A DNA stretch of 64,000 bases from Patescibacteria group bacterium (lineage in GTDB: Bacteria > Patescibacteriota > Patescibacteriia > SG8-24 > DYFX01): the NCBI GenBank assembly GCA_030583805.1, contig CP129476.1:309453-373452 (forward strand), written 5' to 3'. Each line of letters starts with the position of its first letter. The stretch's first letter is position 1. Shown here piece by piece: positions 4,175-61,748 of the stretch. A program made the position numbers and the translations under genes. Below the pieces are notes generated by a model. It had not been told where the DNA came from and searched no databases. It was given only the letters and a program-made list of their open reading frames with translations.

Positions 4175-5984
4175 ACGTCTGTTTGAGTGTAAAAATTCCG
4201 GACGCGATCGCTGCTTTGACGTCTTCGGAGACGTAGGAATCCTCCGCGAGGGTTCGCAGCAACATACCGCGTTTTTCAAAGGACATCAAGGAGGGTTGGA
4301 CGGCCCGAATCTCAATCGGCATGAGGTGAAAGACCGTTTCTTTTTCATCGGCAGCGATGCCGACCGCGAGCCCCTGGCTGGTCTCCGCGCTGAACGATTG
4401 GTCAAAAATGAAATTGCCCAGCGAGTAAAAGATCGCCTTTCCTTTATAGACCTCGATCGGCTGGATGACGTGCGGGTGCGCGCCGAGCACGACGTCGGCG
4501 CCTGCGTCGATGAACGCGTGCGCGATATTTTTCTGCGCTTGCGTGGGAAAGCGCTCGTACTCCACGCCCCAGTGCGGATAGACGACGATGAACGCGCCTT
4601 GCCGCTTCGCATCGACGATCGCTTTCGCGATTTCTTCCATGTCCCGTCCGCCGAACTGGTGGTAGCCGATTTGAACGACCGCGCGGCCCCGCACGTCGGT
4701 CGTCGCCATCACCCCGTCGCGATTCGAAGGGTCGCCGAACGGCACCAGGCCGGCTTGGCGCGTGAGCTCGCGCGCGCCTTCGAGCGCGGAGGTGCCGAAA
4801 TTCAGCGCGTGGTTATTCGCGTAGCCGAGGTGCGTAAACCCCGCGCGTTTCAACGTCGAAAGCAGCCACGGTTCGAACGGAAAGCGCAAATCGTCCGGCG
4901 CGCGCGGTTTTTGCTCTTCCGGCACGTCAATGAACACGCCTTCGGCATTGGCCGTCACGAGATCGCTTCCTTTGAACAGCCTGGGCATGCCGGCAAACAG
5001 GTGATTCGGTTCTTTGCCCTGCAGCAACGCCTCGACACCGCGCGCAAGCATCATGTCGCCGAAGGCGAGCAGCGTGATCGTTGCGTCCTTTTCCTTCTTT
5101 CCGCCTTTGTAGGAACCGACGAGATAACTCGTGACGTCAGGTTGGCCGGGGTGTTCCGTCAGTTCCGCGGAGTTCGATTGCGCGAACAGCGAAAACCGCC
5201 GCGCGCCGACGCTGTCCATGAAACGCATGACGAGACGCAGCCCTTGCCTCGAATCGATATCGACCGCGCGGGCGCCCTCGTCATCCAGCGCCCGCAGAAC
5301 GGCCAAGCTTTTACGGTCGTGGAAGCGCGCGGCCGTATCGGTCAGCTCATGCGTGAAATCGAACGATCCGACGACAAGCACGCGCGACCCGAAAATCTCG
5401 CGCATCTCCCGCACGACGCGCTCGATCTCCGCATCCGTCGCCGTCTCTTTGACGATCAGCGGCACGATGCGCGCATTCGGCATCGATTTCTTGATGAACG
5501 GCACGATGCCGGAAATCCCGTGTTCGCGCGTGAAGGGTTCTTCCTCGATCGCGGCGGCGCCGACTCGCGCCAAACGTTCAACAGCGTCGCAATCGCTTTC
5601 CAGCTGACCGTACGGCGTGCGCCAGGAGGACGGCGTCGTGAGAATCGGCGCTTGACCCGCCATGAAATGATTCGGGCTCACGAGCACGACGGTCTTCGGA
5701 CGTTCCGTCTCGACGGCTTCGAACGCCTCGGCAATCAAGGAAGCCGCCAGGAGGTGATGCGGCACGATCAATCCCTTGATGTTGGCGTCAGATGCGCGCG
5801 GCTCGGCGCTTTGATACGCCTTGTCGAACGTATCCGGCGTGCTGAAGTAGGAATACTGCAGCGACTCGGGACAAACCTTGGCGATCTCGCGCTCTTCGAT
5901 CCTGCGCGTCCAAACGAAAAAAGCGCCAAACAGCGCTGCAACAAAGAGCGTCCCGACGACGATGTTATGAGCGATCCTTCGCAT
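4167..5984 (-). CDS. Fusion protein: N-terminal MEMO1/AmmeMemoRadiSam-B-like domain plus C-terminal CapA/PGA_cap metallophosphoesterase-like domain
   Basis: N-terminal TM anchor. GLIVPHHLLAAS and SFDFTHELT resemble the Memo-family PHAGY/DFSHYG motifs. C-terminal FGDMMLARGV, ANNHALNFG, YPHWGVEY and GAHPHVIQPIEVYKGKAIFYSLGNFIFDQ are the PGA_cap/CapA signatures. Confidence 0.75.
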   Translation of the reverse strand: MRRIAHNIVVGTLFVAALFGAFFVWTRRIEEREIAKVCPESLQYSYFSTPDTFDKAYQSAEPRASDANIKGLIVPHHLLAASLIAEAFEAVETERPKTVVLVSPNHFMAGQAPILTTPSSWRTPYGQLESDCDAVERLARVGAAAIEEEPFTREHGISGIVPFIKKSMPNARIVPLIVKETATDAEIERVVREMREIFGSRVLVVGSFDFTHELTDTAARFHDRKSLAVLRALDDEGARAVDIDSRQGLRLVMRFMDSVGARRFSLFAQSNSAELTEHPGQPDVTSYLVGSYKGGKKEKDATITLLAFGDMMLARGVEALLQGKEPNHLFAGMPRLFKGSDLVTANAEGVFIDVPEEQKPRAPDDLRFPFEPWLLSTLKRAGFTHLGYANNHALNFGTSALEGARELTRQAGLVPFGDPSNRDGVMATTDVRGRAVVQIGYHQFGGRDMEEIAKAIVDAKRQGAFIVVYPHWGVEYERFPTQAQKNIAHAFIDAGADVVLGAHPHVIQPIEVYKGKAIFYSLGNFIFDQSFSAETSQGLAVGIAADEKETVFHLMPIEIRAVQPSLMSFEKRGMLLRTLAEDSYVSEDVKAAIASGIFTLKQTYE

Positions 5985-6690
5985 GCACGTCTTTGGCGTG
6001 TCCGAAGGTGTAGGCGAAACGGTCGTCGCGGATCTGGCTGCGCATCAAAAGATGCAGCTCGGCCAAGAGATATTTGCCGAAAATGGAAAAACGGCCGTCG
6101 CGCTCGAAGCGGCGCACCGACACGCGGATGCGCGTGCCGTGCAGCACGCGGAACGTGCCGATCCTGCGCGCGCGTTCGACATAGTCGTGATCTTCCGCCA
6201 ACTTGATCGATTCGTCGAAACCCTTGATGCGTTCGTGCAGGCGCTTGCGCGCGAAAATGCAAAAGCCGGGAGCGTGCGCCAGCATGAATTGCGTCGCCAT
6301 CATGTGCGCGTTGAAGACGTTGTGGGAAACGTGGTCGATCAACTTTCCGTCCATCGGCTTCACGAGACACGTCGCCGCGTCGAGCTCGCGCCGCGTGAAC
6401 TGTTCCATTTTTCCGGCGAGCCAATCGACGTCGGGCAACACGACGTCGGCATCGAGGAACAAGAGCACGTCGCCCTTCGCCGCTTCGGCGCCGCGATTGC
6501 GTCCCGGTCCCGGCATACCGCCGTCGACGACCCGCGCGCCGAACTGCAGCGCGATCTCGCGCGTCCGGTCGCTTGAGTGCGCGTCCGCAACAACAATCTC
6601 ATACCCGTCAAAGTTCTGGCTTCGAATGGAAGCCAGGAGCCTCGGCAGATACCCTTCCTCGTTGTAGGTCGGAATGATGATGCTTAGCAT
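5965..6690 (-). CDS. Glycosyltransferase family 2
   Basis: MLSIIIPTYNEEGYLPRLLASI...VVADAHSSDRT...LFLDADV are GT2 motifs. ATG at 6688-6690. Overlaps the downstream gene start by 20 nt. Confidence 0.85.
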   Translation of the reverse strand: MLSIIIPTYNEEGYLPRLLASIRSQNFDGYEIVVADAHSSDRTREIALQFGARVVDGGMPGPGRNRGAEAAKGDVLLFLDADVVLPDVDWLAGKMEQFTRRELDAATCLVKPMDGKLIDHVSHNVFNAHMMATQFMLAHAPGFCIFARKRLHERIKGFDESIKLAEDHDYVERARRIGTFRVLHGTRIRVSVRRFERDGRFSIFGKYLLAELHLLMRSQIRDDRFAYTFGHAKDVHAKDRS

Positions 6691-6917
6691 ATGTGGTTTT
6701 TTAGCTCTTTTGAGCCAAAAAACCGTATCAATGGCTATGGTAGCATACTTTGGCACTTAAAGGAAGGGGCGCGGGAAGCACGCGATCTCGACCACTCTCG
6801 CTGACACCACGACATAACAAGGGCGCCGCGCCGCTGACGAAACATCGCTCCTGTGGAAAAGCCGCGTCGTACGAGCCTGCCGCGCGAAACGCCGGAGTCT
6901 GCTATCATAGAGGCACT

Positions 6918-8072
6918 ATGCGCCGCTTCGTTCTTGCTTTCACGCTCAGTCTCACCCTACTCTCCGCCGCTCCCGCCTTTGCCGCCGAAGGCTCCAAGCC
7001 TTTTTTCTCGGAGATCGGTAGGCACTTTCTCACGGGCGCGCGCTTTTACGGCAACACCATCAGCAACCTCTCATGGAAGCTCATGGTGCGTTTGGGGTTC
7101 GACCGGTTTTTTTCGACCACGGGCGAGGGCGGCCTCTGCGACCAGAGCACGCGCTGCGCGGAAGGGCTCGTATGCCTGAACACCTGCAAGGAAGCCTCGT
7201 GCGCCCGCTTTGAAAAGCACTGCGTGATCGGACCGGCGTCGGTGCCGGTCGTCGGTGCATCTTCCATTTGCGGCGCGGAAAACTTGTGCGTCGACGGCAC
7301 GGAATGCCTCCGCGTCTGTCCGGTCGGCGCGACGTGCAGCGCCTCGCATCGCTGCGTCGCGATCCGACGACCGGGGCTCGCCTGCTCGGATGATCTCGAC
7401 TGTAAAGCTTCGTGCGGCGCTCTCTCCGCCCCTGAAATCGGCCCGGGCGCCTACGCAGCGCGCTGCGATCAAGGAAGTTGCGCTTGCGACCCCGTCGAAA
7501 TTACGCCCAACGCTGAACGCATGGCCTGCGGAACATCGACCGTGCTGCTCGGCTGCCCGACAAGCACGTTCCAAGCCTGCGCAAGAGGCGAGAACGGCCA
7601 GCCGTACGCCACCTGCCTCACCTCCCCCGAGTACGGCGGCATGTGTTTTGAAGACGCGGAATGCTCCGCCGCTGCTTGTCCGGAAGGCGCGACGCCGTTC
7701 TGCGACGAAAGCCGCGCCTGCAAATGCCGCGCCACGGAAACGAACGTTATCGCCTGCTCCAACAACGACGAATGCAGCGCGTCGATCTGCGCGCAAAACG
7801 AAATCGCGGCTTGCGTTTCCGGCGCGTGCGCCTGCGCGCCCGCCGGAGTCACCTCGGCCTGCACCACGACCTCCGACTGCTCGACAGAGTGCCCGTCGGG
7901 ATTCGAAGCCGCTTGCGAACAATCGACCTGCGTCTGCCAGCGCACGCAAGAAAACGTCCCCGTCGCCTGCCAAACGGTAGCAGACTGCGGAGCGGTCACG
8001 TGCTTGGGTGACTTTCAAAAAACCTGCCTGGATAACGTCTGCGCCTGCACGCGAACGACTGCGCCCCGCTGA
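6918..8072 (+). CDS. Secreted cysteine-rich repeat protein (hypothetical)
   Basis: Signal peptide MRRFVLAFTLSLTLLSAAPAFAAEG. About 5 tandem ~30-aa modules of the form Cx4-5(D/E)Cx3-4Cx5-9Cx5CxC, each ending in CAC, CKC or CVC. Confidence 0.65.
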   Translation: MRRFVLAFTLSLTLLSAAPAFAAEGSKPFFSEIGRHFLTGARFYGNTISNLSWKLMVRLGFDRFFSTTGEGGLCDQSTRCAEGLVCLNTCKEASCARFEKHCVIGPASVPVVGASSICGAENLCVDGTECLRVCPVGATCSASHRCVAIRRPGLACSDDLDCKASCGALSAPEIGPGAYAARCDQGSCACDPVEITPNAERMACGTSTVLLGCPTSTFQACARGENGQPYATCLTSPEYGGMCFEDAECSAAACPEGATPFCDESRACKCRATETNVIACSNNDECSASICAQNEIAACVSGACACAPAGVTSACTTTSDCSTECPSGFEAACEQSTCVCQRTQENVPVACQTVADCGAVTCLGDFQKTCLDNVCACTRTTAPR

Positions 8073-13418: not shown

Positions 13419-13489
13419 TCGGGGATCGTCTAATGGTAGGACAACAGACTCTGAATCTGTTTATCTTGGTTCGAATCCAGGTCCCCGAG
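13419..13489 (+). tRNA. tRNA-Gln (anticodon CTG)
   Basis: Hand-folded cloverleaf: acceptor tcgggga/tccccga, D-arm gtc-taatggtag-gac, anticodon stem acaga/tctgt with loop ctCTGaa, T-arm cttgg-ttcgaat-ccagg, discriminator G, encoded CCA at 13490-13492. Confidence 0.85.
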
Positions 13490-45068: not shown

Positions 45069-48000
45069 TCAGTTTTTGATCAAGGCCTTCAGCTCATTAA
45101 GCTCCGCGCGAAGCGCATCGATCTCTTTCGCCTGCGCCTGCACTTCCTGATCCAGCTCCTTGATGGCGTTGATACTGATGTAGGTGAAGTCGCTTGGATC
45201 GACCATGTAAACCTCGGTCCTGGTCGTGTCCTCTGGTTTCAACTTTCGATAATCGGTTCGGACCATGGACGGAGCGACTTTTTGAAGTTCCTGCGCGATC
45301 ACGCCGACGCTCTTATACCCCTCTGGCATTCCGCCCAAACCGTTGTACGTGTAGTTGACCGGATTGATCTCACGAATCACCGAGAGGCCATTTGTATAAG
45401 GGGTCACGTCTTTCTTCAACCGCTCGTCGGACGTCGCCGACCAGCTTCCGCCACCTGGCTTCGCCGCGCCGCCGGAGGCCACATAAATTCCCCAGGCCGT
45501 GGCACCGCTGGCTGAAGCGTGGATCGCCGTGTTCTGCGTGGAGCTATTGGCAGCCGTGAAGACTCCCGCATAGTTGATTCCGGATCCCACCGCGGTCGCC
45601 ACTGAATAAACACCATATCCACCCGAGGTCGTCGCTACAGCATGAAGGCCACGAGAAGAACCGCTGGCATACACGCCAGTGGAACCGGATGTCGCATAGA
45701 GTCCGTAGATGCTTCCTGTCGTTTGAATACCCCAACCACCGACTGCTGCCGCGCCATTCACACCGAGAGTATCCGTAATCCTTACGCGACCCTGCGCATA
45801 AAGCGCTGTGTCGTAGGATTGGAATGCCTGAGCATACAAGGCTGTTCCGCCCGACTGCGATGAGCCGAAGTAACCGCCGTAAGACGTTCCCGCACCGTTC
45901 ACACCTATCGATCCGCCGGCACCATACAGCGCCGTGCCTCCGGCCTGCACCACGGCACTGACGCCGCCGACCGTACCGCGAACGGAGAGCGCCGTGTCAA
46001 ACGATGAGAAACCAACGCCCGTGTTGCTAATACCGATGTAATTGTTGATCTGGCGTCCACGTGCGGCGACCGTATCGAGCGTATCCTCTTCCGCGCCGCA
46101 GTTGTTCCAAGTTCCACCTTCGTAGCAGCGAAGCTTGTTGTTGATGGAGTTGTAATACAGCATGCCGTTCACGCCGGCCGGGTTCACGCCCATGCTGCCG
46201 AGCACGAGCTCGCCGCCGATCGTCGTGCGATCCGTCGTCGCATTGCCGAGCGTCGCGTTATCCGCAACCCAGAATGTGCCGTTCACCGTCAGCGTGGAGC
46301 CGGGACCAGCCAAACCGATACCGACGCGGTTGTTGGCGGCATCGATGTAGAGCGTGTTCGAATCGATGTTGAGGCTGTTCGGAATAGCAACGCTTGATCC
46401 TGTAATCGTCAGGGTGTCGAGCGCCGCGTTACCAATCGTCGTATTGCCGTTGACCGCGAAGTTTTGCGCCGCCGTGACCGTTGCGCCATCGTCCGTCAAC
46501 GTCGAGTTGCCAAGCGTCGTGGCAGCCGTGAATTTCGGAATCGTGTTGACCGAACCGCTTCCCGCCATACCGCCATCACGGCAGTCTTGCCATGCGCCGT
46601 TTTCAAAGCAGCGAAATTTGTTCGTCGTGGTGTTGTAGTACATGCGGCCGTTCGTACCGCCGATATCGTTCGCTGATAGACCGAGAATCAGCGATGCGCC
46701 GTTGCCAATCTGAGCTCCGCTCGAGAAAAGGGCGAGGCCGGAAGAAACGCGAAGTGATGTGAAATCGCCACCCCAGCCGGAACTAGAGCCGCCGTACACG
46801 CCCGCGCCAGATGTCGTCGAATAACCGTAGACACCATAGACGGGCGAGATGCCGTACACGCCGGTGGACTGACCGCTACCCATAATACCGGTGGAGGCGG
46901 CTCCTGAAGCCACGACCTGAACCGGTGTCGCCCCCGCACCCGCATTGTTGACGCTGATAACAGGCACGGAGATCGAGTTCGCATTAAAGACTCCGTAGAC
47001 GCGCATCGCGTACGAGGCATCCGGGGCACCGCCGACGCCAATCGTGGCGCCGTTGTCCCAGATATTCGAGTTGCCCACGACACTTCCGTTTACCGTGAAC
47101 TTCGCGAGACGGTATTGTTCGCCCGTACCTTCGATGCCCGCCTGGCAGTTCACGCCGTTCGCGAGACAAACCGCTTGGCCTCCAGAGTAGATCGTGCCGG
47201 CCGCGCTCACGTTGCCGTCGACATCGACGCTGAAGCGGTCCGTGTTCTCGGCTTGAAGAAGCATGATATAACCACCCGCAAACTGATCGACGTTTCCGTA
47301 AATCAAGTTTTCACCAGGGTTCAGCAACCGCACGTCCGGGCCGCCGAACATCACCATGCCCTCGATATCAACCGTACCGTTTTCGTTCAAAGACATGACC
47401 TGCGAGTTGTCTCCGGCCAGCCAGTAATAGGCGTTCGAGGAGTCGTTATCGGCGTCGATGCGGTAATACATCGAGCCGTCAGCGTACTGATTGAAGGCGT
47501 TTTCACCGGTGCCGTACACTTCAATGCCGCCGACCTGGTTCGTGATCGACATGACCGTACCTCCGGAAACGTTGTTAAACGTCGTGTTCGTGTTGAACGT
47601 CTTCGCGCCGGTAAACGTTTGCGTGTTGTTCAACAAGGCAACGTTGGAGGAAAGACGAGCATCATTCAACGTGCCGGACGTAATGTTGTTGGCATTGATG
47701 TTCGTGATACCGCTACCATCGCCGCCAAGCGCGGCATCAAGGCCGCCTTGCACATGAAGCCTGCCGGGTACGACAACGCTGTTGGTCGAGGAGTACGTCA
47801 TTGAACGCACTCCGTTCGTCACGACCGTCATCGTATCGGCTGACGGGTGATAGATACCGGTGTTCGAATCGCCAGCAAACGTGTAACCAGGCGCGCCTAC
47901 CGAACCGACCGGCACGTACAACGCGCCCGTCGTCACGGCTACGCCGCCGTTGTTCACCGTAAGCCGTTGTACGCCGCCCGTCGTAACGCTGACGTTGTCA

Positions 48001-48461
48001 GTGCTCGCCCAATAAAGGCCCGTGTTCGGGTCACCGCTGAATGTGTATGCGGGGAGACTGACGGAACCTGTTGAAGCGGTGATGGGGCCGGACGTCGTCA
48101 CTGCGCCGTCGATACCCACGCGGAAGCGATCGGCAGCACCTACTTGAAGAAGCATCAAACTGCCAGCCGTAGAAGTACCGCTGACATTTCCGTAGTAAAG
48201 ATTTTGTCCCGAAGCGTTCAAAACGGGGGTGCTAGCGCCGGCCTGGAACGTTGCGCCGAGCTTGCCGTCGCCTGTGACGTTAATGCTCGCATTCTGTGCC
48301 GCGCTCGTAATCGGAATATTTTGAATGACGGCCGGGCTGCAGTTCGGAGGCGTGCAGGTAGGCGCGGCAAATTGCGCGTGTACGCCTCGTGCGCCAAAAA
48401 CCAATGCGATCAAAGCGACGAGCGAAACGAAAATCTTGCGGCCGGTCGTATCGATGCGCAT
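45069..48461 (-). CDS. Large secreted Gly/Thr/Ser-rich fibre-like protein with C-terminal intramolecular-chaperone (Peptidase S74 / tail-fibre chaperone) domain
   Basis: Signal peptide MRIDTTGRKIFVSLVALIALVFGARGVHA. Long degenerate G/T/S/A-rich repeats. C-terminal SDERLKKDV...VNYTY...coiled-coil resembles the endosialidase/tail-fibre auto-chaperone domain. Confidence 0.65.
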   Translation of the reverse strand: MRIDTTGRKIFVSLVALIALVFGARGVHAQFAAPTCTPPNCSPAVIQNIPITSAAQNASINVTGDGKLGATFQAGASTPVLNASGQNLYYGNVSGTSTAGSLMLLQVGAADRFRVGIDGAVTTSGPITASTGSVSLPAYTFSGDPNTGLYWASTDNVSVTTGGVQRLTVNNGGVAVTTGALYVPVGSVGAPGYTFAGDSNTGIYHPSADTMTVVTNGVRSMTYSSTNSVVVPGRLHVQGGLDAALGGDGSGITNINANNITSGTLNDARLSSNVALLNNTQTFTGAKTFNTNTTFNNVSGGTVMSITNQVGGIEVYGTGENAFNQYADGSMYYRIDADNDSSNAYYWLAGDNSQVMSLNENGTVDIEGMVMFGGPDVRLLNPGENLIYGNVDQFAGGYIMLLQAENTDRFSVDVDGNVSAAGTIYSGGQAVCLANGVNCQAGIEGTGEQYRLAKFTVNGSVVGNSNIWDNGATIGVGGAPDASYAMRVYGVFNANSISVPVISVNNAGAGATPVQVVASGAASTGIMGSGQSTGVYGISPVYGVYGYSTTSGAGVYGGSSSGWGGDFTSLRVSSGLALFSSGAQIGNGASLILGLSANDIGGTNGRMYYNTTTNKFRCFENGAWQDCRDGGMAGSGSVNTIPKFTAATTLGNSTLTDDGATVTAAQNFAVNGNTTIGNAALDTLTITGSSVAIPNSLNIDSNTLYIDAANNRVGIGLAGPGSTLTVNGTFWVADNATLGNATTDRTTIGGELVLGSMGVNPAGVNGMLYYNSINNKLRCYEGGTWNNCGAEEDTLDTVAARGRQINNYIGISNTGVGFSSFDTALSVRGTVGGVSAVVQAGGTALYGAGGSIGVNGAGTSYGGYFGSSQSGGTALYAQAFQSYDTALYAQGRVRITDTLGVNGAAAVGGWGIQTTGSIYGLYATSGSTGVYASGSSRGLHAVATTSGGYGVYSVATAVGSGINYAGVFTAANSSTQNTAIHASASGATAWGIYVASGGAAKPGGGSWSATSDERLKKDVTPYTNGLSVIREINPVNYTYNGLGGMPEGYKSVGVIAQELQKVAPSMVRTDYRKLKPEDTTRTEVYMVDPSDFTYISINAIKELDQEVQAQAKEIDALRAELNELKALIKN

Positions 48462-48523
48462 AAGGCGTAATGGTTGATGTGCCCAGTATACCTTATTTCG
48501 CTTAGATCCGACCTTGGGGATAA

Positions 48524-49579
48524 CTACACCCCTTCGTCACGCAATTCCTCAAGCAGCTGTTTGGATTTCCTGGAGAGGTGGCGTGGGGTGCGGATCCGCA
48601 CGCGCACGTAGTGGTCGCCGCGGCCGGAAGCTTGCAAACGCGTGATGCCGCGATGCTTAAGGCGGATTTCCTCGCCCGCTTGGACGCCCGCCGGGATTTT
48701 GACCGTCAGGGAGCCGTCGAGCGTTTCGATTTCCTTTTCGGTGCCGAGCGCGGCGTCGGCGAAACCGATTTCGAGATTGGAGTAAACGTCAAAGCCGTCG
48801 CGTTCGAAACGCGTGTCAGGCTGGATGCGGATGTGCAAGTACAAATTACCGCTCGGCGCGCCGTGCGGCCCAGCTTCGCCGCCGCCTTGCACGCGGATCG
48901 TTTCACCATGATCGATGCCGGCCGGGATCTTGACCGTCATCGACGTTTTCTCGCGCTTCACGCCCGCGCCGCCGCAATCCTTGCATTCCTTTTCCGGAAT
49001 ATTGCCGGCACCGCGGCAAGCGCCGCACGTCGCGACCGCCTCGAAGCTGCCGAGGATCGTGCGCTGCATCTGGCGCACGCGGCCTTGGCCGCTGCACGTC
49101 TTGCAGGTGATCATTTTCGATCCGGGCGGAATGCCGGTGCCGGAACAGGCGCTGCAAGCGACGGGCTTGTACAGCTCCAGCGTCTTTTCCGCGCCGAACG
49201 CTGCTTCGCTGAACGAAATGGTCACGTTGACCTCGATGTCGCCGCCGCGCGCTTGCCTCCGGCCGCCGCGTCCGCCGCCGAAGCCGAACATGTCGCCGAA
49301 CATCTCTCCCAAATCCCCCATGTCGAAATTGGCGCCTTGGAAGCCGCCTTGCCCGAACCCGCCGAACCCCGGTCCGGCCGAGCCGAACTGATCGTACTGC
49401 GCCCGTTTTTTGGCGTCGCCGAGCACTTGGTAGGCCTCGTTGATTTCCTTGAACTTGGCTTCGTCGCCGCCTTCTTTGTCGGGGTGGTATTTGTGCGCCA
49501 AAACGCGGAAGGCTTTTTTGATCTCGTCTTCCGAAGCGCCCTTGCTAATTCCGAGGATTTGGTAATAGTCTTTAGACAT
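48524..49579 (-). CDS. dnaJ: Molecular chaperone DnaJ
   Basis: J-domain with HPD (YHPDK), a G/F-rich region, and four CxxCxGxG zinc repeats. Confidence 0.95.
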
Positions 49580-49597
49580 CGGTGGTCATTATACAGG

Positions 49598-50269
49598 AGG
49601 CCCGCCATGCACCTCTGCGAAACGTGTCGCGCGGAGCGCGAATGGGATACGGACGAAAGCGTGCGGTGGCAGATCGCTGCCAATCTCGCCCGCTCCGAGC
49701 GTGACCCGGCCAAGGCCCGCTGCGCGGAGTGTACACAGATCGGGTCTGGCGCGCCGACCTTCATCAGGAACCCGCTCTTCCAGATCTGTCGGAAGTGCGC
49801 GGAGCGCCTCGACCAATGCCAGCACTGCCGGAAGCCGATGTCTTCTTCGTCGGTTGCGGGATGCGGCGAGGTCTTCGAGACGCTCTTCGATGCCTACGTG
49901 ACGCTCGTGAAGACGTACGGCCGATCGACGGCGCGCACGCTGCTCGCCGCGGCGGACCTTTCGTCGGCGGAAGCCCTGCACGTTCCGACGCTCGTCGAGC
50001 TGGACGTCGGCCTGGTCGATTCCATGCAGCCGCACCAGCGGTACCACTACCGGCTGAAGCGCGATATCTGGACGAAGGTCTGGGGACAGCTCGGCTTCAG
50101 CGTGGTGCCGCCGCGCTGCGAGGCATGCCCGCCGCCGGCGCGCGCCGCGCCCGCGATGGTCCGAGCCGCGCATTGCGAGCATTGGACCGCGGGGAGCAGC
50201 GCCGTCTGGTGCCTGCCCTGCGCGGTCCTGAACCGCCAGTGCGCGATCTGCGAGACCTCTACCGAGTAG
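49598..50269 (+). CDS. Cysteine-rich zinc-ribbon protein (7 CxxC motifs), hypothetical
   Basis: AGGAGG SD 7 nt upstream of the ATG. CETC, CAEC, CRKC, CQHC, CEAC, CLPC and CAIC pairs. Lies between dnaK and dnaJ on the opposite strand. Confidence 0.6.
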
Positions 50270-50276
50270 AGGTCTT

Positions 50277-52160
<1,884 letters not shown>

Positions 52161-52161
52161 A

Positions 52162-52566
52162 TTATTTCCCCTTGACTTCAATCTTAATTTCTTTCTTCTT
52201 GCCTTCTTCGGCTTTCGGGATGGTGATGCGGAGGAGTCCGTGCTCGGACGTCGCTTCCGCTTTCTCGCCGATGACTGGCGCGGGCAGGGCGATCTTGCGC
52301 TGGAAGGCGCCGTAGCGGACTTCTTTATAGAGATAATCCTTCTCGTCGACTTCCTTACGGTGTTCCGTCTTGCCGCGGAGCGTCAGCACGCCGCCTTCGA
52401 CCGTGACTTCGACGTCTTTCGGATCAACGCCCGCAAGCGCCGTCTCGACGACCACGTCGCCCGCGTTCTCATACACGTCGACCGCCGGGATGAAGCCTTT
52501 GGAGAGATCCATCAAACCACGATCGAGATCCTCAAGAGGGTTCTGGTTTTTTGGAAGCAAGGACAT
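52162..52566 (-). CDS. Hsp20/alpha-crystallin family small heat-shock protein
   Basis: Alpha-crystallin domain [39 protein letters not shown]...GLLRITIPK. Confidence 0.85.
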
Positions 52567-52573
52567 ACACAAT

Positions 52574-52867
52574 TTACTTCGCCAACGCCTTGAAGCTTGC
52601 GCCGACGGTGTCAAACTTTACCAGCTTGTTCTGGGTTTGGACGCTCAGCTTGATGCTGTTGAGTCCCGCTTTGTGTTTCGGGAGGTCGGCCAGGCGGATT
52701 TTTTGGTCGCGCATTTCGGTGCCCTTATCGCCAACGACGCGGGTCGGGACGGTGACCAGCATGTCGCCGCTCAAGCGGAAGAACATCAAGAACTTCGGCC
52801 ACTCTTTAAAAGAGAAGCTGTGCTTTTCGTATTCTTCGTCCCATTCAAGATCGCTTTTGAGCAACAT
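52574..52867 (-). CDS. Hypothetical protein (97 aa) inside the heat-shock operon
   Basis: Clean ORF between grpE and the hsp20 gene. No motif I recognise. Confidence 0.45.
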   Translation of the reverse strand: MLLKSDLEWDEEYEKHSFSFKEWPKFLMFFRLSGDMLVTVPTRVVGDKGTEMRDQKIRLADLPKHKAGLNSIKLSVQTQNKLVKFDTVGASFKALAK

Positions 52868-52870
52868 AGT

Positions 52871-53356
52871 CTATTTGTTTACGATGACTTTTGCGGGCCG
52901 TACCGTCTTGCCGCCGATCTCGTAGCCGGCTTGGACTTCTTTCAAGATCGTGCCGTGCGGCTTGCCTTCGTCTTCTTCGCCGACCGCTTCGTGCTTCGTC
53001 GCGTCGAAGGTTTCGCCGGCGGTTTTGATGATCGTGAGGCCGAGGTTTCGGAGCGCCTCTTCAAGCTGCTTTTGGATGAAGCCGACGCCGACCGCCCAGT
53101 TCACGACCGTCTTGTCGTCGGACTTCGGCATGTGCGCCAACGCGGTGTTGAAGTTGTCGAAGATGGGCAGGAAGCGCTCGACGACGCGCAGTGTCGCGTA
53201 CTGCCCCATCTCGGCGCGTTCGCGGGCGACGTCTTTTTGGAGATTCTGGTAGTCGGCCAGCGCGCGTTTCCAGTTGAGCTCCATTTCCGCGCAGAGCTGC
53301 TCGGGCGTTTTTTCCGGCGTCTCCGCGAGTTCTTCGTTTTTCTTTTCTTCTTCCAT
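52871..53356 (-). CDS. grpE: Nucleotide exchange factor GrpE
   Basis: GrpE coiled-coil plus beta-domain, ...NYQNLQKDVARE...KHEAVGEE. ATG placed immediately after the hrcA stop. Confidence 0.9.
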   Translation of the reverse strand: MEEEKKNEELAETPEKTPEQLCAEMELNWKRALADYQNLQKDVARERAEMGQYATLRVVERFLPIFDNFNTALAHMPKSDDKTVVNWAVGVGFIQKQLEEALRNLGLTIIKTAGETFDATKHEAVGEEDEGKPHGTILKEVQAGYEIGGKTVRPAKVIVNK

Positions 53357-53357
53357 A

Positions 53358-54047
53358 TCAGGTTTTGAGCGTTTCAACGGCCGTTTCAAGAAGAGCGAGG
53401 TCGGTGTCGTAGTCCATGCGCATCGGACCGAGGAGGCCGAGGAGGCCGATCGGCGAACGCACGACGAGGAGGCCGCATTCGGCGCCGAACGGATTTTCCG
53501 AACCGATCAGGATGCGCGTTTCGGAACCGACTTCGGGGAACATTTTTTCCATCGTCTCGTCGAGATGGTCGAGCACGCGCGACATCGAGGCGACGAGCGA
53601 GAGCTGTTTGAACTCCGGCTTGGCGAACAGATTGGCGAGGCCGGTGTAATAGACGTCGCGCGGAGCGAAGGCAGCGAGCGCCGACTCGTTCGCGAGTTCG
53701 GCGAGCGCTTTGGCGACGCGGCGCAACTTGTCGCTTTCTTCTTGCGCGGCCTCAGCGGCTTCGGCGAGCGCGGTCGCAGCGGCGGCTCCCGGTTTTTTCT
53801 TTTCGAGGAAACGATCGACGTAGTAGCGATAGCCTTTTTCGCTGGGCGCGCGTCCGGCGGAGGTGTGCGGCTGGAGCAGGAAGCCTTGTTCTTCGAGCGT
53901 CGCGAGTTCGTTCCGGATCGTCGCCGAGGAGACGTCCAGGCCGGATTCATCGGCCAGCCACGCCGAACCGACCGGCTCGGCGCTCTGGATGAAGCGCCGG
54001 ACGGTCAGTTTCAGCAGGATTTCTTGGCGAGAATCAAGCTGTTCCAT
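53358..54047 (-). CDS. hrcA: Heat-inducible transcription repressor HrcA (short form)
   Basis: Winged-HTH N-terminus PVGSAWLADESGLDVSSATIRNELATLEEQGFL. First gene of the operon, with CIRCE immediately upstream. Confidence 0.85.
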   Translation of the reverse strand: MEQLDSRQEILLKLTVRRFIQSAEPVGSAWLADESGLDVSSATIRNELATLEEQGFLLQPHTSAGRAPSEKGYRYYVDRFLEKKKPGAAAATALAEAAEAAQEESDKLRRVAKALAELANESALAAFAPRDVYYTGLANLFAKPEFKQLSLVASMSRVLDHLDETMEKMFPEVGSETRILIGSENPFGAECGLLVVRSPIGLLGLLGPMRMDYDTDLALLETAVETLKT

Positions 54048-54052
54048 AGTTT

Positions 54053-54079
54053 CTAGCACTCAGATTATACGAGTGCTAA
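54053..54079. promoter_or_regulatory. CIRCE operator (HrcA binding site)
   Basis: cTAGCACTC-agattatac-GAGTGCTAA matches TTAGCACTC-N9-GAGTGCTAA. On the reverse strand the N9 spacer contains TATAAT, with TTGACG about 15 nt upstream. Confidence 0.9.
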
Positions 54080-54103
54080 CGAACCGTCAAGCGCGCCGCC
54101 AAG

Positions 54104-54565
54104 CTTGACAAATCGATCATTTTATGGTAGGTTTTCATGGCCATGATCGCCCATGGATCATGGAGAAGAGCTCGTCTCCGAGCCCTTGGACAACATCCGC
54201 CACTTTGGAGTTATTAGCGTCAAAATCTTCCGATTTCGCCCACGAAAGGCTTGCCTTTCCGGGGGCTGGATTCCTTAGGGAGTCCAGTGTGGTCGGTGTG
54301 AGTATGACGTGAGGAGCGAAACTTTTCCCACAAGGATATAAGGTGGGAAGACCAAGCCGACGCCTGTCGGTTTCCCATTCACCTTCGGGTGGATGCATGG
54401 GTCTGGCGAACTTTTTTCCCCAACGGTAACCGACTGGTCGGCAACAGGATCGCCGACCCCCGACCATACCCGGACTTCGGTCCAAACACGGTCAGCGCAT
54501 CCTACGCCGCCAGTCGGTTACCGATCTCTCTCATCCACGGACCCTCTTGGGTCCGTTTACGTTTG
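54104..54565 (+). ncRNA. Candidate structured ncRNA unit 1 (promoter-like TTGACA-17-TAGGTT to terminator-like hairpin), identity unknown
   Basis: No credible ORF. Long inverted repeat ggtaaccgactgg...ccagtcggttacc (54421-54433 and 54509-54521). Hairpin ggaccctcttgggtcc plus a U-rich tail at 54539-54565. Confidence 0.3.
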
Positions 54566-61672: not shown

Positions 61673-61748
61673 GCCGCGTTCGTCTAGCCCGGTCCAGGAC
61701 GTCGCCTTCTCACGGCGAAAATCAGGGGTTCAAATCCCCTACGCGGTA
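61673..61748 (+). tRNA. tRNA-Glu (anticodon CTC)
   Basis: Hand fold: acceptor gccgcgt/acgcggt (G1-U72), D-arm gtc-tagcccggtccag-gac, anticodon stem tcgcc/ggcga with loop ttCTCac, T-arm agggg-ttcaaat-cccct, encoded CCA at 61749-61751. Confidence 0.75.

Follow-up and report, generated by a model that had tools for sequence, protein, structure and literature searches.

The locus and the gene model

The 64-kb stretch of Patescibacteria DNA analysed here, referred to below as the window, carries a heat-shock locus in which a plus-strand gene for a cysteine-rich protein is seated between dnaJ and dnaK. The gene begins with ATG at 49607-49609 and ends with TAG at 50267-50269, and the encoded protein is identical to GenBank WKZ29463.1, "hypothetical protein QY323_01890" of a Patescibacteria group bacterium (1.17-Mb contig). 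The gene, its control elements and its two neighbours are as follows, with lengths in nucleotides (nt), base pairs (bp) and amino acids (aa).

49607..50269, plus strand: target gene, 220 aa plus stop, called from the open reading frame (ORF), the G+C content (GC) by codon position, an open frame in 12 of 12 orthologues, and homologues.
49595..49600, plus strand: Shine-Dalgarno (SD) sequence AGGAGG, 6 nt ahead of the ATG.
49588..49593, minus strand: TATAAT hexamer, located 8 nt ahead of the ATG of dnaJ and 1 nt from the SD sequence of the target gene; it is a candidate -10 box from which dnaJ would be transcribed as a leaderless mRNA.
50252..50286, plus strand: intrinsic terminator, whose 11-bp stem holds the last codons and the TAG; its T-run is the complement of the last Lys codons and the stop of dnaK.
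49589..50182, minus strand: Arg-rich shadow ORF of 197 aa, not a gene (GC1 0.85, GC3 0.65, stops in orthologues, no Pfam hit).
48524..49579, minus strand: dnaJ (Pfam DnaJ, DnaJ_CXXCXGXG and DnaJ_C), head-to-head with the target gene across a 27-nt spacer.
50277..52181, minus strand: dnaK (Pfam HSP70, 855 bits), with a likely ATG at 52160 preceded by GGGGA; 7 nt separate its stop from that of the target gene.

An earlier note on this DNA had described a plus-strand ORF of 223 aa that starts at 49598 and is inserted divergently between dnaK and dnaJ. The plus-strand ORF ending at 50269 stands, but position 49598 falls within the SD sequence, where there is no start codon, and the start is therefore corrected by 9 nt to the ATG at 49607, giving 220 aa. 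The pair is indeed split by a gene on the opposite strand, since Pfam confirms dnaJ and dnaK, both on the minus strand. The term divergent holds with respect to dnaJ; with respect to dnaK the gene is convergent, i.e. tail-to-tail. The consensus AGGAGG that the note reported is present at 49595-49600.

The choice of strand is supported by composition and by conservation, as the note had anticipated in regarding the minus-strand ORF as a shadow. The plus frame has GC1/2/3 of 0.63/0.54/0.86 and resembles the neighbouring genes, whose GC3 is 0.68-0.80, whereas the minus ORF shows the mirror pattern. Across 12 orthologous loci, the plus frame contains no stop codon in any locus while the minus frame is interrupted in seven, and differences are more frequent at the third codon position (0.46) than at the first (0.35) or the second (0.32), so that frame-specific conservation favours the plus strand. 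We conclude that the plus-strand gene is real and is under purifying selection. That there is no gene here, with either the minus-strand 197-aa ORF as the true product or the region as a long untranslated dnaK-dnaJ spacer, has a negligible probability. The minus ORF is uninterrupted in the window, but besides its shadow composition and its stops in orthologues, its product has no homologues and no match in a Pfam scan, the SD sequence and the terminator are conserved on the plus strand, and an Rfam scan of the region finds no RNA family.

Architecture of the protein

The protein is soluble and consists of two Cys-rich modules that flank a helical core.

49607..49840, plus strand: N-terminal CRIPT-like zinc module, residues 1-78, with C4/C7, C39/C42, C61/C64 and C71/C74 (conserved ligands, Cript and DUF2039 hits in members, internal repeat).
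49850..50086, plus strand: central alpha-helical domain, residues ~82-160, slightly acidic, with conserved D95, K102, G105, R149 and R152 (AlphaFold2, alignment, charge).
50108..50266, plus strand: C-terminal CRIPT-like zinc module, residues 168-220, with C171/C174, C190/H192, C202/C205 and C212/C215 (CRIPT is its top PDB profile hit).

All seven CxxC motifs that the earlier note had counted are present, and C190-x-H192 forms an eighth pair; the window protein contains 16 Cys in total. In an alignment of 29 diverse members of the family, the 16 residues of these eight pairs (15 Cys and 1 His) are the conserved ligand positions, and few other residues are invariant, among them Q72, D95, K102, G105 and R149. 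In individual members, His substitutes for C7, C61, C64 or C174, a pattern typical of metal ligands rather than of disulfides. The conserved ligands and these swaps give good support to metal binding, as implied by the zinc-ribbon protein of the note.

The two modules constitute an internal repeat with the common pattern C-x2-C-A-x5-C-x2-C-x-S-T (hhalign E 1e-4). Two AlphaFold2 models are confident, with predicted local distance difference test scores of 86 and 89, and contain an N module, a helical domain and a C module, in which the inner ligand pairs lie on a beta-hairpin that is followed by a helix. The protein is near-neutral with an isoelectric point (pI) of ~8, the N module carrying a charge of about +4 (median +4 among members) and the core about -2.

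Resemblance to CRIPT

The nearest known relative of the modules appears to be the eukaryotic CRIPT domain, to which they would be remotely related through a match that is weak. Pfam Cript (PF10235) is matched by 19 of the 29 members at E<=0.1, with a best value of 1.1e-7, and two members (P0005 and P0050) have precomputed PF10235 hits. Stand-alone C-modules P0044, P0046 and P0047 score 36.7, 26.8 and 35.7 bits, respectively, against a Pfam gathering score of 25.5 bits. When a profile of the C module is compared with the PDB, human CRIPT (7dvq_0) is on top at E 0.029, with W-C-x2-C-A-x5-C-x2-C-G aligned to CRIPT Y-C-Q-G-C-A-Y-K-K-G-I-C-A-M-C-G. Both modules have four Cys pairs ending in C-x2-C-A-x5-C-x2-C-G and align to CRIPT YCQGCAYKKGICAMCG. 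Foldseek with the better model also ranks CRIPT first at a non-significant E of 0.86, the full-length profile retrieves weak RING and RBM22 hits only in a PDB sequence search, and Pfam and NCBIfam scans of the window protein give nothing significant. Because the window protein reaches no Pfam threshold, the modules are termed CRIPT-like here, and the protein is not assigned to the CRIPT family.

In the structure 7DVQ, CRIPT holds two nested zinc ions, through C3/C6/C83/C86 and C58/C61/C73/C76 (PMC10676203). By analogy, each module would bind a pair of structural zinc ions nested as in CRIPT, which makes four per protein, at the putative sites C4/C7+C71/C74, C39/C42+C61/C64, C171/C174+C212/C215 and C190/H192+C202/C205. 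The modelled secondary structure, in which the inner pairs sit on a hairpin followed by a helix, is compatible with this topology.

The likeness to CRIPT extends to four CxxC-type pairs per module, to the terminal signature [W/Y]C-x2-C-A-x5-C-x2-C-G in both, and to the start of both proteins with M-x-(x)-C-x2-C. On the other hand, CRIPT is a eukaryotic protein of ~101 aa with one module, whereas the present protein, from Patescibacteria, has 220 aa, two modules and a helical domain; to our knowledge, the CRIPT domain is essentially eukaryotic. CRIPT ends in the PDZ ligand -QTSV, whereas the present protein ends in -ETSTE and has no class I PDZ ligand (-x-T/S-x-V), and one of its ligand pairs is C-x-H instead of CxxC. 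Judged by this analogy, the protein probably works like CRIPT, as a small zinc-stapled adaptor.

Mini-proteins of 53-142 aa that consist of one or two copies of the C module (P0044, P0046, P0047 and P0048) occur on metagenomic contigs of 0.7-4 kb and pass the Pfam CRIPT threshold. They may belong to a larger reservoir of CRIPT-like domains that is possibly prokaryotic.

Other zinc-binding families

The earlier note had also compared the protein with Hsp33, with the DnaJ zinc centre and with anti-sigma factors, and none of these comparisons holds. Hsp33 is recognised by an Hsp33 domain with a C-terminal CXC...CXXC zinc switch, and the Pfam/NCBIfam, PDB sequence and fold searches yield no such match. 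The central zinc domain of DnaJ (PF00684) is defined by four CXXCXGXG repeats and a hidden Markov model (HMM) match; the protein has no PF00684 hit at E<=1 and no GXG after its CxxC motifs, whereas the adjacent DnaJ does match (52.9 bits). Zinc-binding anti-sigma factors (zf-HC2) are marked by H-x3-C-x2-C, by an HMM match and by a sigma factor gene next to their own, a combination not found here: Pfam zf-HC2 gives no hit, and the neighbours are dnaJ and dnaK, with no sigma factor gene nearby. What the protein shares with the DnaJ zinc centre and Hsp33 is that all are Cys/zinc modules of chaperone systems encoded near dnaK; it differs in its fold and in lacking the CXXCXGXG spacing, and the neighbouring DnaJ owns a normal zinc centre.

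A RING finger was considered in view of the C-x2-C-x6-C-x2-C tail and the eight ligands per module. RING C3HC4_3 (PF13920) gives 16.2 bits over residues 60-80 only, below the Pfam threshold of 27 bits, and IAP RINGs are found at E 0.02-0.2. This candidate was rejected on the sub-threshold score and on the H192-to-C202 spacing, which is x9 instead of x2-3. The topology is probably nested, as in CRIPT, and not cross-braced as in RING domains.

Hep1/Zim17 proteins (zf-DNL) are small tetracysteine zinc escort proteins dedicated to the Hsp70 of mitochondria and chloroplasts. The Pfam scan finds no zf-DNL match in the window protein and its architecture differs; a functional analogy is possible if the protein partners DnaK.

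Family size, spread and origin

A search of 5.8 billion proteins yields 19 full-length homologues at 35-100% identity with E values of 1e-19 to 1e-148, which are far beyond chance. When 1.84 billion representative proteins are searched exhaustively with HMMER, 31 hits are obtained, ~24 of which are full-length (clusters), all of 200-243 aa; full-length homologues reach down to ~25% identity. Scans for related loci with a pattern built on a 12-sequence alignment find four loci in 185,579 species genomes, three in JGI metagenomes and none in viral contigs. Two of the four genomic loci are labelled Patescibacteria or Minisyncoccota, and the other two carry the tag "uncultured Gammaproteobacteria", which we take to be a binning label. 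A literature search found nothing on this family or on zinc proteins embedded between dnaK and dnaJ in Patescibacteria. We conclude that this is a rare, clade-restricted orphan family that was previously undescribed.

A phage or mobile-element origin was rejected because the family is rare by the above counts and absent from viral contigs; the PHROGs and PADLOC scans of the window protein likewise give no significant match. The GC of the gene is raised (0.62-0.70 vs 0.58). Horizontal transfer, to which this might point, was rejected because the composition is common to all orthologues and the gene is confined to one clade.

Conservation of the position in relatives

The gene stands head-to-head with a minus-strand dnaJ in 14 distinct loci, including that of the window (the others being L001, L004, L005, L006, L010, L012, L015, L016, L017, L018, L019, L022 and L023). 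The spacer between dnaJ and the gene is mostly 17-27 nt across these loci and 27 nt in the window. On the other side, dnaK is tail-to-tail with the gene wherever the contig extends that far, with a GIY-YIG gene intervening in L001. The arrangement persists where the protein itself retains only 27-31% identity (L019, L022, which encodes P0037, and L023), and also at the edge of the clade as judged by DnaJ, at 60-64% DnaJ identity; beyond the clade, DnaJ homologues in other Patescibacteria plateau at ~53-55%. The conservation between dnaK and dnaJ for which the earlier note had called is thus borne out: the gene is kept at the same place, and spacers lacking the ORF did not turn up.

The premise of that note, a normally adjacent dnaK and dnaJ, goes too far. 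Bacteria differ widely in how the two genes are spaced, and intergenic elements give differential dnaK and dnaJ expression (PMC12077118). The dnaK-dnaJ intergenic region of Salmonella with its small RNA tpke11 resembles the present case in that an element between dnaK and dnaJ permits differing expression (PMC12077118). The present element differs in being an entire protein-coding gene in antisense orientation, equipped with a terminator of its own, and dnaJ here appears to own a leaderless promoter.

Two insertions were seen in L001, a locus recovered from Hainich H41 groundwater. The GIY-YIG gene (6670-6969, 99 aa) is inserted between the terminator of the target gene and dnaK, and a palindromic insert of 30 nt (CCACGT...ACGTGG) has been acquired by the dnaJ/ORF spacer (5944-6000). 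The junction around the gene seems to be a target of small mobile insertions.

Control elements at the two borders

At the 5' border, an SD-like sequence (GGAG, GGGAG or GAAGGA) is found ~11-12 nt ahead of the ATG in all of 15 loci, and the spacer bears a conserved 15-mer, TCATTATACAGGAGG. The TATAAT hexamer on the opposite strand is kept in 11 of the 14 dnaJ-adjacent loci, 8-9 nt upstream of the dnaJ start, and the variants TATACT (L016) and TAGAAT (L010) still match TAnnnT. In L001, where 30 nt are inserted, the hexamer stays with dnaJ and the SD sequence stays with the target gene. There is no SD sequence upstream of dnaJ; two of the marks expected of a leaderless promoter, a -10 hexamer 6-9 nt upstream and an absent SD sequence, are seen and conserved for dnaJ. 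The TATAAT is probably the promoter for a leaderless dnaJ mRNA, and dnaJ would then have a promoter of its own, outside the control of the only CIRCE (controlling inverted repeat of chaperone expression) operator in the window.

The promoter of the target gene must lie inside the 5' coding region of dnaJ, and the two initiation regions would therefore overlap. It was not convincingly located there, as the protein conservation of the J-domain masks any signal.

In many genes of the window, a -10-like box of the form TAnnnT precedes the start by 6-10 nt and an SD sequence is missing, e.g. 10295(+), 11804(-), 13362(-), 43758(-) and 49579(-). Most window genes are devoid of an SD sequence, and a minority is led by AGGAGG or GGAGG, e.g. 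49607+, 44965- and 61813+. This distribution suggests that leaderless mRNAs may be widespread in this organism.

At the 3' border, the 11-bp stem (50252-50276) is followed by TTATTTTTT and forms the strongest terminator-like site in 48300-54500. The hairpin and the T-run occur in 15 of 15 loci with covarying stems, such as GGGACTTCAT/ATGAAGTCCC, GGCCCTA/TAGGGCC and CGCGACTAC/GTAGTCGCG, and in 13 of the 15 the stem includes the stop codon. The GC-rich stem-loop, the direct T-run and the compensatory changes that characterise a Rho-independent terminator are thus all observed. Read on the minus strand, the hairpin has no U-run behind it and hence does not qualify as a canonical dnaK terminator.

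The heat-shock operon and other neighbours

Upstream of dnaK on the minus strand lies the remainder of the heat-shock cluster.

52162-52614, minus strand: hsp20 (Pfam).
52574-52867, minus strand: 97-aa ORF, no Pfam or PHROGs hit.
52871-53389, minus strand: grpE (Pfam).
53358-54059, minus strand: hrcA (Pfam).
54053..54079, plus strand: CIRCE operator with 1 mismatch, overlapping the hrcA promoter TTGACG...TATAAT; the sole CIRCE in the window, with 0 expected by chance.

There is no second CIRCE near dnaJ. Within the CIRCE inverted repeat at the minus-strand hrcA promoter (54030-54110), the TATAAT -10 box sits in the 9-nt spacer, with TTGACG 15 nt upstream, so that HrcA, once bound, would block the promoter directly. 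The start of hrcA is likely the ATG at ~54047 rather than the GTG at 54059.

The ORF between grpE and hsp20 is always 97 aa and is found at the same place in L001, L004 and L016, with visibly well over half of its positions identical; uncharacterised like the target gene, it is a further clade-specific component of the heat-shock operon. An extra gene of ~180-225 aa, which the window lacks, stands between this ORF (or grpE) and hsp20 in L001 (9412-9999), L016 (9065-9610) and L022 (1067-1741), and the one in L001 encodes a J-domain-only protein. Directly downstream of dnaJ, the minus strand at 45069-48461 encodes a Gly/Thr/Ser/Ala-rich protein of 1130 aa with a C-terminal Peptidase_S74 (endosialidase intramolecular chaperone) domain. 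This giant protein follows dnaJ in every relative, usually with a 168-aa ORF in between that is absent from the window. Two tRNA genes on the plus strand (13419-13489 and 61673-61748) are the only Rfam matches in the window.

Possible function and its alternatives

Taken overall, the explanation that we tentatively prefer is that of a lineage-restricted CRIPT-like zinc protein, encoded by a self-contained unit, that acts as an adaptor linked to DnaK/DnaJ; the case for it falls somewhat short of even. Our best guess from the sequence is a zinc-stabilised adaptor that has a protein or an RNA as its binding partner and either cooperates with the DnaK-DnaJ machine or shares its regulation, and we infer that the protein is neither an enzyme nor a redox switch. 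In the proposed mechanism, the gene would separate dnaJ from the CIRCE/HrcA-controlled operon hrcA-grpE-orf97-hsp20-dnaK, and dnaJ would fire from its own TATAAT promoter within the 27-nt spacer as a leaderless mRNA. Given the overlapping control elements and the convergence on dnaK, transcription of the gene and expression of dnaJ would probably interfere mutually. DnaJ output would then be uncoupled from DnaK output.

Several observations weigh against this adaptor linked to the chaperone machine. The entire neighbourhood is syntenic in the dnaJ-linked loci, from hrcA to dnaJ together with the 168-aa ORF, the giant Peptidase_S74 protein and sometimes a cysteinyl-tRNA synthetase (CysRS) or a P-type ATPase, and because the whole region is syntenic in a shallow clade, position is weak evidence for a functional link. 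The conserved position may reflect ancestry and entangled cis-elements instead of function. The most distant member looked up, P0038 (25% identity), is free-standing beside a tRNA synthetase gene; it carries AGAGGAGG, its own SD sequence and its own terminator, with no dnaK or dnaJ nearby. As for the protein, the window sequence fails to match Pfam Cript at E<=1, and structure searches yield nothing significant. A sigma-70 consensus scan of 48300-54500 gives no full promoter, and a -35 box is not evident for the dnaJ -10 box. What is proposed here on zinc stoichiometry, promoters and interference is derived from sequence throughout.

These points bear directly on a second explanation that we consider nearly as likely, namely that the gene is a passenger. 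It would encode a CRIPT-like zinc adaptor whose job is unrelated to chaperones, such as RNA or ribonucleoprotein binding, and would be kept in place by shallow synteny and by the entanglement of its SD sequence and terminator with the dnaJ promoter and the dnaK stop. Conservation of the whole neighbourhood rather than of the gene alone, and the occurrence of P0038 elsewhere as a self-contained unit, are both expected for a passenger. The mildly basic N module (median +4) would suit such a role, and CRIPT itself stabilises the U12 small nuclear ribonucleoprotein of the minor spliceosome (PMC10676203). The protein also evolves fast, retaining 27-31% identity where DnaJ retains 60-64%. Nevertheless, the gene is kept at the exact spot in every dnaJ-linked locus seen, in reduced genomes of 1.2 Mb and under purifying selection, and given the overlap between its control elements and those of dnaJ, even a passenger could hardly escape some degree of co-regulation. 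At the opposite extreme, the protein could be a dedicated zinc-dependent partner of DnaK-DnaJ in Patescibacteria, that is, a new class of co-chaperone or escort made from prokaryotic CRIPT-like modules and Hep1/Zim17-like in function, with its backwards embedding serving as an antisense and promoter-occlusion switch that sets the DnaJ:DnaK ratio. In that case it would, in addition, be the prokaryotic kin of an essentially eukaryotic domain. We regard this stronger form as unlikely.

Somewhat less likely again is a zinc-finger regulator that binds the DNA of the control region shared by dnaJ and the gene itself, or an anti-sigma-type factor. The divergent layout, the conserved 15-mer within a 27-nt spacer, the overall pI of ~8 and the frequency of nucleic-acid binding among zinc modules would fit a regulator. 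However, the SD sequence and the -10 box fully account for the 15-mer, which is not palindromic; no DNA-binding or anti-sigma family is matched and no sigma gene is nearby; and the charge is mildly positive only, with an acidic central domain. A redox- or heat-activated zinc-switch holdase like Hsp33, or a co-chaperone with a DnaJ-type zinc centre, has a slightly smaller chance still. Although zinc-bound thiols would be plentiful and the gene sits in a heat-shock locus, similarity to Hsp33 or to the DnaJ CXXCXGXG domain is seen neither in sequence nor in fold, and Gly is absent after the CxxC motifs. Moreover, the four putative zinc sites clamping the module ends look structural, and the Cys-to-His replacements, which suit structural zinc, would blunt a thiol switch.

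Implications

A link to CRIPT in bacteria is unexpected. As a partner of DnaK or DnaJ, the protein would represent a co-chaperone of a new type. Without such a partner, it would still provide a CRIPT-like zinc module from a bacterium, and this could shed light on the biochemistry of CRIPT, a poorly understood human disease gene. The cis-architecture, in which 1 nt separates the SD sequence from a candidate -10 box on the opposite strand, the terminator stem holds the gene's own stop and the T-run is the stop of the neighbour, is a compact and testable case of regulation encoded in gene order. Patescibacteria are ultra-small bacteria with minimal genomes and few regulators, and therefore a conserved extra gene in their sole heat-shock locus offers a specific and inexpensive clue to the tuning of proteostasis in these organisms.

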